Below, piece after piece: positions 19,628 through 25,600 of a DNA stretch of 64,000 nt (position 1 is its first letter; each line of letters begins with the position of its first letter). The stretch is from positions 6,262,001 to 6,326,000 of the forward strand of contig CM022679.1 in the NCBI GenBank assembly GCA_012295275.1, given 5' to 3'. Under the pieces are notes generated by a model, which did no database searches, was not told the origin of the DNA, and saw only the letters and a list, made by a program, of their open reading frames with translations. This DNA is from Chrysomallon squamiferum. Lineage: Eukaryota > Animalia > Mollusca. Both the position numbers and the translations under genes were made by a program.

Positions 19628-22600
19628 TCACCTGTAATGAGCATTGATAGCTCGTGCTATTACAAGTTTTCTGATTTCTGTTGTTCCAGCTCCAATCTCA
19701 TACAGCTTAGCATCACGAAGTAGTCTTCCTGTTGGATAATCATTGATGTATCCATTCCCACCTAAAGAAATCAAATAAAAAAAAATATATATATATAAAC
19801 AAAATGTATATATATAGGGCTGAAACCTTGAAATAAAAAAAATAAAAAATACACACATTAATTATTTATACTTTTGAAAATTATGTTATTTAATTTTTTT
19901 CCAACATAACTTAGAAATGGATAAACCATTTAAATTCTACAAGTGATTGTAAGCTCTTATATGTGAAACTATTTCTTTCTGTGCAGCAGGGGAAACTGAG
20001 AAATTATTTTTTTGAAATAATTATTTTAAATTAACATAAAAATACTTTTTTTAGTCTGTAAATTTGAAAATGCTACTTGTCTTTTTTTTTTTAAATATGA
20101 TTTTCAAATATTTTTCCAAAGATTGTGCAGTATGTGGATAGCAAGTAGATTATTAATTAAACTCACCTAAAATCTGGATAGCATCTAGTGCCATTTTAGT
20201 AGCTGCTTCTGCTGTGTACATAATTGCACCTGCACAATCCTAAAAGTAAACAAACTTGTTTTCTGTGTAATTTGAAATGTTTTGTAGATTTATATGTATT
20301 CAAAGATATTGAATTTGCAACTGTTGCAAAATTATTTGGAATCTATATTAAGAATAATAAAGAATACAATACAATACAATACTACTTACAAATAACATTC
20401 TTACACAAACACACAAACAAATAATCAGATACTTAACTACACATGCATGCAGGTATAAATTGTCAAAAATCAGTAATTTAAAATAATTTTTTATTTAGTT
20501 TTTTAAGAAAAGACAACAATCATGAACTTACATTTGGATGTCTCTCTCCTCGGTCAAGAGCTCTTGCTACATTGTACACATAGGATCGACTGACATTCAT
20601 CTGTGTGTACATGTCAGCCATCTTAGCTTGAATCATCTGTAAATACACAAAATTTACAATATCAGACACTTTAAAATGGCCTGCAAATTTGAGTGTTTTG
20701 AATAAAGCTGTTAAATACTTTATTTCATCTTGCTAATCATCATTCCATCTATTTTGATGTCTGCAGCAACAGTCTGATATGCATATTACCAACAGAGCAT
20801 CTGCACAGCTTAGAAGGAATACTGCTGCTGATGAATTATATTTTAAATGATGTAATACACTGAACTTCTGATTCAACAAAATATCTTGTCAACAGTACAG
20901 TTCTGCTTACCTGGAAGTGTCCAATTTTTGTTCCAAAACATTCTCTGTGATGAGCATATTCAAAAGCCACATCACAGCAAGCCTGCATGATTCTAAAAAA
21001 AAAAAAAAAAGAATTTAAAAATAAATAAATAAATAAATTCTTCATAAAATATTTAAATATAAAATTATGGGTGCATCCACACACAAATAATCCATTGCAG
21101 CTGTCCCCAGGAATCAGGATTGCTTATGGATTATATATATATATATATATATATATATATTTTTTTTAATATATTCAGTACCTTTTTTTCTTTTCTTTTC
21201 TGTACATATATATGCTGATAATATAATTGCCAGGAAAATTGTATAATTACTATCTTCACATGCTAAAGTGGAGAAAAAAATTCATTGCAACCTGGTTCAA
21301 CCAAATGAAAATTAACAGTAAACACTCTTAGAAAAATTGAATATCTGATGATTTCTTATGTTGGTGTGAAATACTGTGATCACTCTTGGGTGAAGGTAAT
21401 TAGGACATGCAAATAAGTTGGATCTCAGGTCAGTGGTGACAGAAATATCAAATTAGGTCTTACTTATAAATGCTAATTTCATACTTTACAGATAAACTTC
21501 AGCTACATTTATTTTAAGAAAATTTGTTTAGTCATATAGAACATCATTTATCAAACTTAAAGTTAGTTTTAAAATGCAGAAGCAGGCAGAACAATGTTTA
21601 ATTGTATTAAAATTTAAATACGCATGACATCACAAAGCTGTCTCAACAAAACCAAATAAACATATCATTTAATAGTACTCTATATTTATTACTTCAACAA
21701 AATATACATGTTTCAACACTACAAATAACACATTTTAAAATAAACGACAAATACCTCAACAATTCAAATTAACATCTCATAAATACAAACATGATATTCT
21801 ACTGTCACTATAACATGTCTCCAAGTAACCAAAACACTTCAAAAATATACATTCAACACAACACATACCTCTAAAGCACAAAATTATTTCAACAATACTA
21901 TCATACTATCTTAACAATGCACTAACAGCACATTTCAAAACATTAATACAAAACATGTTATTTACAGCACAATAACAGTTGTGAGAAAACTTGATGCATA
22001 CAAACAAATAAACAGGTGTGGAGCTTACTCACCCTAGACATCCAGCTGATAAAACACATCGTTCAATATCCAATCCTGACATCAACACATAAACACCTTT
22101 GTTCTTTTCCCCCAACATATTCTCTTCTATAATTAGACAGAAGATGTTAAATATAATTATTAAATTCTTTTTTATAATAAAAATATAATTTATCAACTCT
22201 AGCTGAATGCATATAAAGAGCTGTTAAACGAAATAGATATTTCTTATTTTTAAACACAAACATTGTTCTGCCTGTTCTAGCACCTTCAGAAATGTATTGT
22301 AGTTTTTAATCTCTCAGATTCTACTGTATACAAATACTGAAGGATAAAATGAGGAGTGTGCTCAGGGTTAAGAAATAGTGAAACAAAAGCCTTATTAAAG
22401 AAATTTTTGAAATCCTTGCTCTTACTCATTTATTATACATTTTCCATTTCTAAACTCATCACTTAAAGTATGACATACGAAATACCAGCTTGATATGCCA
22501 AAATGTATGTGCTATTTATGGTTGGAGGAAATTACGTGAAATAAGAACAAATGCTGTTTTGGAATTCTCACCCTAGAGGAGCAGAGGCACCTAGGCCTCG

Positions 22601-25600
22601 TTCAATATCAAGGCCAGACATTAGGATATATACACCATGATTTTCTTCACCTAGCAAGTTCTCCACTGTGAACAGCAAAATACATATAAAAGTCTTGGAG
22701 ATATATATACAGCAGAATCTGAGAAAATTTGAGATTAATTAATTAAAAAAAATAATCATTATGTGCATCATATATATCGATATAATTTTTTTACTTTTTT
22801 AGTTGTGTGTGTGTATGTGTGTGTGTGTGTGTGAGAGAGAGAGAGAGAGAGAGAGAGAGAGAGAGAGAGAGAGAGAGAGAGAGAGAGAGAGAGAGAGAAA
22901 GAGAGAGAGAGAATAAAATTTTTAACTGGTTAGAACAAAATAAAATATTTAATTCTTGAAACACAGGTTTTTTTTCTAAATACCTGGTACTTTGCAGTCT
23001 TCAAAAACCAGTTCTGATGTGTTAGACCCTCTCATTCCCAACTTATCCAGTTTCTTGCCTGGATGAAATCCTGGCATATTCTGTGTGAATAAAATATGTC
23101 CATTGAATTACACAAAGAAATACACTTGTTTATATGTTATAAAAATCACAGGGTCCAATCTCAAAAAAATATATGATGATTTAAACTTACTTTTTCCACT
23201 ATAAATGCACTTATACTTCGAGCTGGTTTGTCACTGTTGATATCTGTTTTAGCATAAACAACCAATACGTCAGCATCTGGTCCATTTGTAATCCAAAACT
23301 TAGTACCATTTAATACATAATGATCACCTAAAAGAACAAATTAAAAAATTACTGGCTATTTTCTATACAACAGTATATCAGAATTTTTAAAATGCATTAA
23401 AAAGCAAATAAACAAATAAATAAACAAACCATGGATAGATTGGTTCCTCAGGGGGTTTTTTTTTCAGAAAAATAGATTACAAATGGTAGGAAAGAGATAA
23501 CCTGAATTATACAGCTGGTGAAAAAGACTCTCTAAGAAGGAAATGTTATGTGCACTTATAAACTGGTTAAAAACCAAGTGACAAAACAAACAGACCATCA
23601 ATGATCTAGATTCACAAGATCACATTTTTAATGAGAACTACATAACTGAATTTACTTAATAAAGATCTTACATTTTTTCACCAATTAGGTTATTGAAAAA
23701 CAGAATTACAACTGAAACAAATATAAATCACTTTGAAAGTTTATATATTCAGGAATAAATTTTATATTCTGATTTGATTAAATATGATTTGTGTGCATAA
23801 AGGATTGTTTTCTATAGCAATATTAACTGATAAGGATTTTCTACTGTATCCTACTTTTTTTCTCTCCCCCCAACAGTTAGATAATTTTTATCCAAGAATA
23901 TAAAAATATCTCAATAAAATGATTACATACACAAAAGAATATACTGTTAATTTTTTTAAATGATATGAAAATGGTTTCAACATATGTTAAATCCTTGGTA
24001 TGAAATTTCAGATTTTTAAGTAAAAGTCACTTACAATAACATTTCATCAGTGTCCACATTAAAGACTTTGAAGCCTTATACTAGGTCCTCACCTTTTTTC
24101 TCAGCTTTAAGCTTCATGGATACCACATCAGAACCTGAATTAGGCTCACTCATTGCCAAAGCTCCAATATGTTCTCCACTGATAAGCTGATCAAATAAAA
24201 ATAAGCAGATATTTTTCATTTGATTTTTTTGACAAGATATTTTTTTTAATTTGGTATTTATTACTTCTTGGGTTGATCTTTTTCTCAGTTGATCTTTAGT
24301 ATACATTTTATTTTCTTGATTTTATAATGTGCTTGTTATTGGGTAATAATCTTAGATAAATCATAATCTAATATTAAAAAGAAATCATACAGTGTTACAA
24401 GTGATGCCACTACTGTATAACCCTGATCAAATAGAAACAGTCCAGATGATTATCCCATAAGCAATCAGTAATAAGTAATTGCACTAAAATGCAGCCAAAT
24501 ATGTAATAGAAAGGAAAAATAAATAATAACCTTTGGAAGATATTTATCTTTCTGTTGTTCATTCCCATTTCTGACAATCTGATTAACACAAAGATTGGAA
24601 TGAGCACCATAGCTGAGAGCAATAGATGCACTAGCTCTGGACATTTCTTCCATAACCAGAACATGATCCAGATATGACATCTCTGATCCTCCATATTCAT
24701 CTAAGAAAAACATGGGGAAAAATACAGATATCATTTCTGATACAACAAAATTATGCAGTTAGTAAAAACGTGTGATAAACTAGATTTGATTATACTTTGT
24801 TATTAATATTTCAGTTCTGACAATGAAATTCAACTGAAGTTGAACCATATACCTGTATGTGAGCAGAAACAGAACAGCTCATCTTGAATGATTCAGCATG
24901 ATAAAATGTATCTTCTGTATACTTCATAGCAAGTTAGTACTGTACTTAATTATATTTTCTTACAAATACACAAATAATATTGATTACATGCCTCCCAAAA
25001 TAATTTTTGTTTCTCAAACAAACAAAAAAATAAGGATTTCAATTTTAAGTATATAAAATAAATTGTAATTATAAATAAATAATCTAGTCTTAATATATTA
25101 TTTATTGCATCTTAATAGAATAAATAATACTTCTTACTTGGAGCTGTGATACCATGGAGACCCAACTCTCCACATTTTTTCCAAAATTCCTGAAATTTAT
25201 AACACATGATATTCAAAATATAGTGAAGCCAAAACTTGATATTTGTCAGTTATGATGTGACTGTTTAGTGCAACAGATAACTAAAAATGAGTTTACACAC
25301 TTTTAGCAGACAGTTTTGTTACTTAATACCAGTATGTGCTGAAACAACAAAATGAAATGCTTGTGAATAAACATATATTGATAATAGTGCTGTTCAGGGT
25401 TTTTTAATCAAATGTAAACATATACATATACAGTACCATATTTCTGTTTTAATATTTAATATCTCAAAACATTCAATAATAATTGTTATTCGATGAGATA
25501 CATTTAAGTTTAAGGGATGATGAGGTCAGACGGTTGAAATATGCTGCTGGAAGGTATCAAGCTTTGAGTGTATGTTCCAATGTATTCACCAGAGCCTTTG

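Follow-up and report, generated by a model that had tools for sequence, protein, structure and literature searches.

The IVD gene of the mollusc Chrysomallon squamiferum carries two exons, 8a and 8b, that are spliced singly, and each of them is bracketed by its own pair of complementary intronic arms. With moderate confidence, we take the two resulting stems to form a double-hairpin interlock that steers the choice between the exons. The sequence examined, hereafter the window, spans 64,000 nt (GCA_012295275.1, CM022679.1, 6,262,001-6,326,000), with IVD on its minus strand, and all features below are located on that strand. The constitutive exons 7 (22984..23080) and 9 (20911..20992) lie upstream and downstream of exon 8a (22572..22665) and exon 8b (22033..22126), both of 94 nt with AG/GT borders. 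Exons 8a and 8b are adjacent and of equal length, identical at 59 of 94 nt, with intact splice sites and like phases, and as such have the structure of mutually exclusive exons arising from tandem duplication. Because 94 is not divisible by three, products with both exons or with none are frameshifted, and early stops are found in the reading frame of both forms.

The two exons are truly alternative and mRNAs carry one or the other. Spliced 148-nt contigs, 7-8a-9 and 7-8b-9 alike, were assembled in runs X6 and X8, from two studies, while run X9 gave a 7-8b-9 contig, with 8b only; the loose ends common to the 8a and 8b contigs are the end of exon 7 and the start of exon 9. No 8a-8b joint was present among the contigs of these three runs, keeping in mind that contig assembly loses rare forms, and the mapping stretch excluded the bodies of exons 7 and 9, so that a 7-9 skip is not visible there. 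Contig depths (X6: 8a 8.4, 8b 5.7; X8: 8a 12.8, 8b 30.5) hint at sample-dependent 8a/8b ratios, of which they are no measure. In X8, a further contig (22204-22368) spans both arms located in the middle intron, with 0 differences in 165 nt; other intronic contigs show 3 differences in 264 nt and 3 in 174 nt, all small numbers.

Stem I joins intron 7 to the middle intron. Its 5' arm (22704..22726) lies 39-61 nt upstream of the 8a acceptor and its 3' arm (22310..22332) is matched without difference by the X8 contig. The helix (22726-22704 with 22332-22310) is gapless over 23 bp, includes 3 G-U pairs and reaches -32.8 kcal/mol, with pair probabilities of 0.59-1.0 (1.0 across the core). Within it lies the 19-bp stem of the original prediction: the arms are on the minus (transcribed) strand as claimed (22724-22706 and 22330-22312), the first 41-59 nt upstream of the acceptor of exon 8a, which begins at 22665, and the sole non-Watson-Crick pair in these 19 bp is indeed G-U (G22713-U22323). 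The prediction had asked for folding against shuffled controls, and this comparison came out in its favor, none of 300 dinucleotide-shuffled versions of the intron pair giving as strong a helix (z -9.8), nor any of 489 real window segments with the same geometry. Among the 4024 helices of at least 12 bp counted on the two strands of the window with spans of no more than 1.5 kb, stem I is the strongest of complex sequence; microsatellite helices exceed it and were taken out by an entropy filter that we chose ourselves. No third copy of the arm exists in the window at up to 3 mismatches.

Two further features ascribed to this stem fare less well. The G-U pair, proposed as a hint of selection on RNA pairing, is a weak one: the extended duplex is barely better on the transcribed strand (-35.5 vs -32.9 on the other), the contiguous helix differing more (-32.8 vs -14.9), and one internal G-U would be close to a coin toss under neutral transitions. 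The proximity to the branch point is right only approximately, since the strict yUNAy candidates upstream of 8a are at -78, -74 and -70, with TTTAT at -22, and the core arm falls between these candidates and overlaps none; masking is not supported.

The picture of a lone stem overlooked a second one around exon 8b. Stem II pairs the middle intron (5' arm 22248..22286, core 22274-22257, beginning about 22 nt past stem I) with the intron between 8b and 9 (3' arm 21571..21612, core 21600-21583). Its 18-bp core amounts to -27.2 kcal/mol and its extended duplex to -43.4 kcal/mol, and neither 300 shuffles nor 485 matched real window segments produced an equal. The contiguous core favors the non-transcribed strand (-28.9 vs -27.2), and no further copies of the arm occur within the 64-kb window. 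A duplicated-hairpin origin was considered and dropped, the similarity between stem I and stem II arms not being significant (p 0.29-0.90).

Strong flanking helices are found at 2 of the 11 internal IVD exons, 8a (-32.8 kcal/mol) and 8b (-27.2 kcal/mol) only, the nine constitutive ones ranging from -5.4 to -12.8 kcal/mol. The elements are ordered I5'-8a-I3'-II5'-8b-II3', with the stems side by side, and both the MFE and the centroid folds hold the two stems at once with pair probabilities near 1, in an equilibrium fold of 1.25 kb that ignores proteins and co-transcriptional timing. Pairing of intron 7 with intron 8b-9, which would leave out 8a and 8b alike, does not rise above background (-12.7, matched by 77 of 200 shuffles). 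We found no competing docking site: each arm has one partner (-34 to -39 kcal/mol), the runner-up partners (-12 to -19) being about 20 kcal/mol weaker. A search of Rfam returned no family at gathering score; the sole match, SCARNA7, is weak (20.5 bits vs 65) and falls on a simple repeat of the opposite strand.

We infer from this arrangement that the stems function in splicing choice. Stem I would loop out 8a, so that about 440 nt instead of 857 would separate the exon-7 donor from the 8b acceptor, and stem II would loop out 8b, bringing the 8a donor from 1579 to about 860 nt of the exon-9 acceptor. With both stems present, the 8a donor and the 8b acceptor would sit in different loops and be harder to join. 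The first intron to be excised would carry off an arm of its opposing stem: splicing of 7 to 8a would destroy stem I and leave stem II over 8b, while splicing of 8b to 9 would destroy stem II and leave stem I over 8a. Splicing of 7 to 8b, or of 8a to 9, would discard the competing exon and, with it, both stems. On this view, the ratio of 8a to 8b would depend on which comes first, recognition of an exon or zipping of a stem, and nonsense-mediated decay would clear the both-exon and no-exon products.

Frame and decay could, however, yield exclusivity without any stem. This underlies an alternative that we consider unlikely while weighing it seriously, namely that the stems are neutral relics of decayed inverted repeats or mobile-element ends and that exclusivity stems from splice-site competition, proteins and the nonsense-mediated decay of frameshifted products. 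The reading frame by itself eliminates the wrong products, and the stem I arms hold a TA-CAGTAG end which resembles DNA-transposon termini. The arms also lack similarity to the introns of the distant IVD loci L002-L004 (0 of 32 tests below p 0.05); a motif common to stem II and an L002 pairing, noticed by eye, was discarded as not significant (p 0.075). In a relative (run X10), a 738-nt contig contains exon 8b (11 differences in 109 nt), three of the four matched contigs being short AT-rich chance pieces near 22143-22184; none lies over any arm or 8a, a lack of cover that is no proof of absence. A scan of prokaryotic genome contigs for an exon with its donor gave 0 matches. In favor of a role for the stems, strong RNA pairings of other designs are found at the exon-8 cluster of the distant IVD loci L002 and L004. 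The L002 intron-intron helices (12/150 and 6/100 shuffles) and three of four L004 intron pairs are not significant, and the L003 result (1/60) arises from repeat copies. Since mobile-element-like repeats at L003 and L004 form equally strong helices, those of L004 being repeat-derived, helix strength alone is no proof of selection. Against neutral relics, two dissimilar stems exactly flank both alternative exons and 0 of the 9 constitutive ones, and extra arm copies are absent from the 64 kb. The would-be termini face outwards, so that 8a is not within an element. The window holds 8 matches to the 10-mer of the transposon-like end against 7.35 expected, hence no enrichment.

It is also unlikely, in our view, that the stems are functional in alternation, one per transcript, activating the exon outside its loop, which is the model favored for Drosophila srp (PMC4691838). 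The middle arms are close, weak extensions of both come near the spacer, and steric crowding over these 22 nt, protein binding or folding order are possible causes of such alternation. The srp pairs, however, cross (PMC6071210), whereas the IVD pairs stand next to each other and both form in the fold with a probability near 1. Quite improbable is the reading that gives stem II no role and has stem I by itself silence 8a through masking of the branch-point region. Stem I does have the stronger contiguous core, a clearer strand preference and a position near the acceptor; stem II, on the other hand, is equally improbable by chance and stronger once extended, the stem I core arm covers no branch-point candidate and the 8a mRNA assembles readily in two studies. 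Back-splicing of single exons into circular RNA, which the flanking pairs might serve, is the least credible, as 94 nt would make an unusually small circle and no backward joint is seen among contigs; flanking reverse-complementary matches are reportedly associated with back-splicing, as with skipping (PMC8330042).

Leaving these alternatives for the double-hairpin interlock, the exon pair that it would govern is old. In 12 of the 13 pairs of RefSeq isoforms compared within a species (from molluscs, a nemertean, a brachiopod and a bryozoan), the proteins differ solely in exon 8. These X1/X2 isoforms, known from automatic annotation only, occur in Mytilus, oysters, Pecten, Dreissena, Mya, Haliotis, Tubulanus, Lingula and Watersipora, and share with the snail gene the same exon-8 swap and the same small residue at the position of L290; the literature searched held nothing on their splicing mechanism or function. 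In an exon-8 peptide tree (32 columns), the variants cluster (2 changes vs 11 when shuffled), yet not as one clade, a pattern that fits a single origin as well as repeated ones. Alignment to human IVD (1IVH/8SGR) places in 8a the catalytic Glu and a Gly at the L290 position, where 8b encodes the canonical Leu of the pocket floor. Which exon is used is predicted to alter how deep the substrate pocket is, the 8a form taking longer or bulkier acyl-CoAs. Because the governed exon carries both the catalytic Glu and the pocket-floor residue, the stems may balance a leucine-pathway enzyme against one for longer or bulkier acyl-CoAs. More tentatively, this could be an ancient lophotrochozoan switch between shallow- and deep-pocket IVD (Leu/Gly), for which lineages built their own RNA structures, that of the snail being a splicing-order interlock of non-competing hairpins.

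The predicted switch parallels one in the same animal groups. According to the portion of PMC7434440 consulted (Tan et al. 2020), coq-2 exons 6a and 6e are of equal length, mutually exclusive and remodel the enzyme core, and exons of this type occur in molluscs and annelids, while mammals lack them. The COQ-2 substrate switch is proven, whereas that of IVD is predicted, and no RNA structure appears for coq-2 in that portion. RNA-pairing control of either-or exons is so far known from arthropods and a few vertebrate genes. The study of Yue et al. 2017 reportedly covers MRP1 exons in molluscs; apart from it, no such control in molluscs was found in the literature searched. Like Dscam exon 6, 14-3-3, Mhc, MRP1 and human ATE1 (R1/R3/R4), IVD has long-range intronic pairing that loops out an exclusive exon. 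The likeness to docking/selector systems drawn by the original prediction (Dscam, 14-3-3, Mhc) nevertheless fails, as IVD has one partner per arm, without common docking site or competing selectors, and is not of the downstream docking type of 14-3-3, Mhc and MRP1.

The closest relative is srp, in which mutations showed exons 4.1 and 4.2 to be controlled by four elements that form two pairs, one surrounding each exon; breaking both pairs leads to skipping and double inclusion (PMC4691838). Its upstream stem loops out the first exon and favors the second (PMC4691838), a precedent for the proposal that stem I loops out 8a in favor of 8b, though not as a lone silencer, stem II looping out 8b. In both genes the exon is duplicated, the intronic elements number four (two in the middle intron and one on either side of the exon pair) and pair around single exons, no docking site is shared and skipping causes a frameshift. 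They differ in host, mollusc versus arthropod, in evidence, the IVD stems being known from one sequence, and in order, IVD forming a side-by-side double hairpin instead of a pseudoknot, an order that PMC4691838 mentions solely for Dscam exon 9, a cluster of many exons. The IVD stems would hence be a double-hairpin form of srp-type bidirectional pairing. If the proposed mechanism is true, it would be a splicing-order interlock of non-competing hairpins, a design so far without a demonstrated example among two-exon clusters, and this compact two-exon, two-stem unit of about 1.2 kb, free of competing base pairs, would offer a clean test of exclusivity from coexisting stems, which the work on srp and Dscam exon 9 did not settle.

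The window has the composition of AT-rich animal DNA, and a gene for isovaleryl-CoA dehydrogenase (IVD) lies on its minus strand; exons 2-12 of this gene, read with exon 8b, form an open frame of 375 residues (324/375 identical to Gigantopelta aegis IVD, then 312/375 to Haliotis among the proteins compared). These identities point to a gastropod close to Gigantopelta as the most likely host. Exon 8 occurs twice, as 8a (22665-22572, minus strand) and 8b (22126-22033, minus strand), both of 94 nt, AG/GT-bounded and equal in phase, with 59/94 bases identical; the frame is intact with 8a alone or 8b alone, and early stops arise with both or neither. 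Both 8a and 8b are spliced in, singly. Eleven public sequencing runs were listed, nine with matches in the region, from three studies, and four were compared over 21400-22775. X6, a run of RNA on record, has two 148-nt contigs ending in exons 7 and 9, one passing through 8a and the other through 8b, and the same two 148-nt forms join exon 7 to exon 9 in X8, a run of another study labelled "DNA?" whose contigs are yet spliced; run X9 has the 8b form alone. No 8a-8b joint was found among the contigs of 21400-22775, a stretch that could not reveal a 7-9 skip, and contigs lose rare forms. Of note, exon 1 (26468-26327, minus strand) has a frame shift near 26375-26360, its start matching Gigantopelta in one frame and its end in the next; the break is one surplus base beside a T run and, since the gene is expressed, probably an assembly error.

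The original prediction placed a 19-bp pairing between intron 7 and the middle intron, around 8a (stem I). Its arms were recovered where predicted, with one G-U in 19 bp, and extend gaplessly to 23 bp (22726-22704 with 22332-22310, 3 G-U, -32.8 kcal/mol). Stem I exceeds 300/300 dinucleotide shuffles of its two introns (z -9.8) and is the strongest of 4024 window helices (at least 12 bp, span within 1.5 kb, either strand) after a simple-repeat filter with an entropy cut-off of our choice; in the unfiltered list, microsatellite pairs are stronger. No third copy of a stem I arm was detected in the window at up to 3 mismatches. The second helix in the window-wide list is a partly microsatellite 25-bp hairpin with a 103-nt loop (4753-4777 with 4881-4905, plus strand). 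The proposal that G-U pairing hints at selection on RNA carries little weight, just one G-U being internal; with mismatches allowed, the transcribed strand gives -35.5 vs -32.9 for the other. The branch-point candidates of 8a (-78/-74/-70 and -22) all fall outside the core arm.

A second helix, missed in the original prediction, flanks 8b in the same way as stem I flanks 8a. This stem II joins the middle intron (22274-22257) to intron 8b-9 (21600-21583) over 18 bp (-27.2 kcal/mol; -43.4 kcal/mol when extended with small bulges), and exceeds 300/300 shuffles (z -6.5); the third-best helix of the region in the same enumeration reaches -16.6 kcal/mol. With mismatches allowed, the transcribed strand gives -43.4 vs -38.8 for the other, and the contiguous core is slightly better on the non-transcribed strand. 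For each of 11 internal IVD exons, the strongest helix joining its two flanking introns was sought over up to 600 nt of either intron: 8a gave -32.8, 8b -27.2 and the other nine -5.4 to -12.8. Among unshuffled window segments with matching geometry, 0/489 reached the stem I value and 0/485 that of stem II. Between intron 7 and intron 8b-9, pairing does not rise above background (77/200 shuffles reach it). The first 400 nt 3' of 8b (22030-21620, minus strand) show a strong U/G bias and may be a zone of protein binding within the stem II loop.

Regarding other genomes, exon 8b lies on a contig of 738 nt in X10, a run from a second organism (11 differences over 109 nt), in which no contig covers any arm or 8a. 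Scanning metagenome contigs with the variant, 8a-like exon and its donor returned four IVD loci, L001-L004; arm sequence similarity to the introns of L002-L004 gave 0/32 tests under p 0.05. Strong pairings were found at the exon-8 cluster of L002 and L004. In L002, which has the window's exon order, the variant exon end forms a perfect 15-bp helix with an intron arm 32-46 nt past its donor, enclosing the donor (2251-2237 with 2202-2188, minus strand; z -4.3, 0/200 shuffles); the canonical exon end is a possible alternative partner of this arm (-36.1 vs -30.4). L002 holds tandem IVD paralogues (4343-222 and 6238-5276, minus strand), the one seen whole carrying both exon-8 forms. L004 has three exon-8 copies (966-1059, 3957-4050, 5514-5607; pocket floor Ala, Gly, Leu) and a possible downstream docking site (6500-6526), whose partners are elements following the second copy (-48) and the first (-38), over a background of -14.8 +/- 5.2; the selectors lie near 1417-1450 and 4834-4860, the four differences within the 27-bp helix are all G-U on the transcribed strand, and these elements may be repeat-derived. 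Because these pairings were picked out post hoc, and L003 and L004 abound in comparably strong helices derived from repeats, they are suggestive only, and helix strength is thus no proof of selection. A 150-bp palindromic repeat on either side of the variant exon in L003 (573-720 and 1352-1499) and L001 (125-272 and 921-1068) could pair across it. Function of the two window stems is likely; that they are neutral relics, to which such repeat-derived helices lend some room, seems rather unlikely beside the exon-by-exon values.

The elements follow the order I5'-8a-I3'-II5'-8b-II3', the middle arms about 22 nt apart. The MFE and centroid folds of 22790-21540 both contain the two stems, whose core pairs have probabilities near 1, the next-best partner of every arm is about 20 kcal/mol weaker, and sequence comparison detected no relatedness between stem I and stem II arms. 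The original reading stands in part: its stem is confirmed and joined by a second, and the single docking-site type that it cited does not fit, each arm having one strong partner. At about even chances, the two stems act together as an interlock for exon choice without base-pair competition. Closing stem I would place 8a in a loop and cut the distance between the exon-7 donor and the 8b acceptor from 857 to about 440 nt. Stem II would do the same for 8b, leaving about 860 instead of 1579 nt between the 8a donor and exon 9. If both stems are closed, the donor of 8a and the acceptor of 8b would sit in separate loops. Exclusivity could arise without competition because a productive first splice would remove the opposing stem, leaving the rival exon under its own stem or removed, and decay would clear the remaining products. 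Alternation, with one stem closed at a time, is unlikely given that both fold together.

The exon pair is old, as judged from isoform sequences. In 12/13 same-species isoform pairs (the 12 from Mytilus edulis, three oysters, Pecten, Dreissena, Mya, two Haliotis, Tubulanus, Lingula and Watersipora), lengths are equal and every difference falls within the 32-residue exon-8 span; in the Littorina pair exon 8 is identical in both, and in Gigantopelta, Patella and octopods the comparison found the canonical form alone. Aligned to human IVD, exon 8 holds M280, D284, the catalytic E286, R287 and L290. The human pocket floor, L127 and L290, is described as excluding chains of at least C7 (PMC12369846). 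At the L290 position, 8a has Gly, as do variant isoforms of bivalves, Tubulanus, Lingula and Watersipora, and the Haliotis variant has Ala; a deeper substrate pocket is predicted for the 8a enzyme. Ostrea edulis P0152 (X3) and P0133 (X2) show a third exon-8 form, with Val at the pocket floor, implying three copies there.

Yue et al. in 2017 reportedly treated MRP1 exons in molluscs and may already show molluscan pairings. No report of an IVD exon switch, or of molluscan or lophotrochozoan RNA-pairing control, was found in the open-access literature, supplements excluded (for the latter including passages of PMC3912159). The nearest precedent for an enzyme switch by exon choice is coq-2 6a/6e (PMC7434440). 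Drosophila srp has four elements in two pairs, each round one exon, and breaking both yields skipping and double inclusion (PMC4691838); IVD shares this bidirectional arrangement of one pair per exon. The element order differs: the srp pairs form a pseudoknot (PMC6071210), whereas the IVD stems form a side-by-side double hairpin, an architecture mentioned in the srp comparison, in the portion seen, for Dscam exon 9 only.
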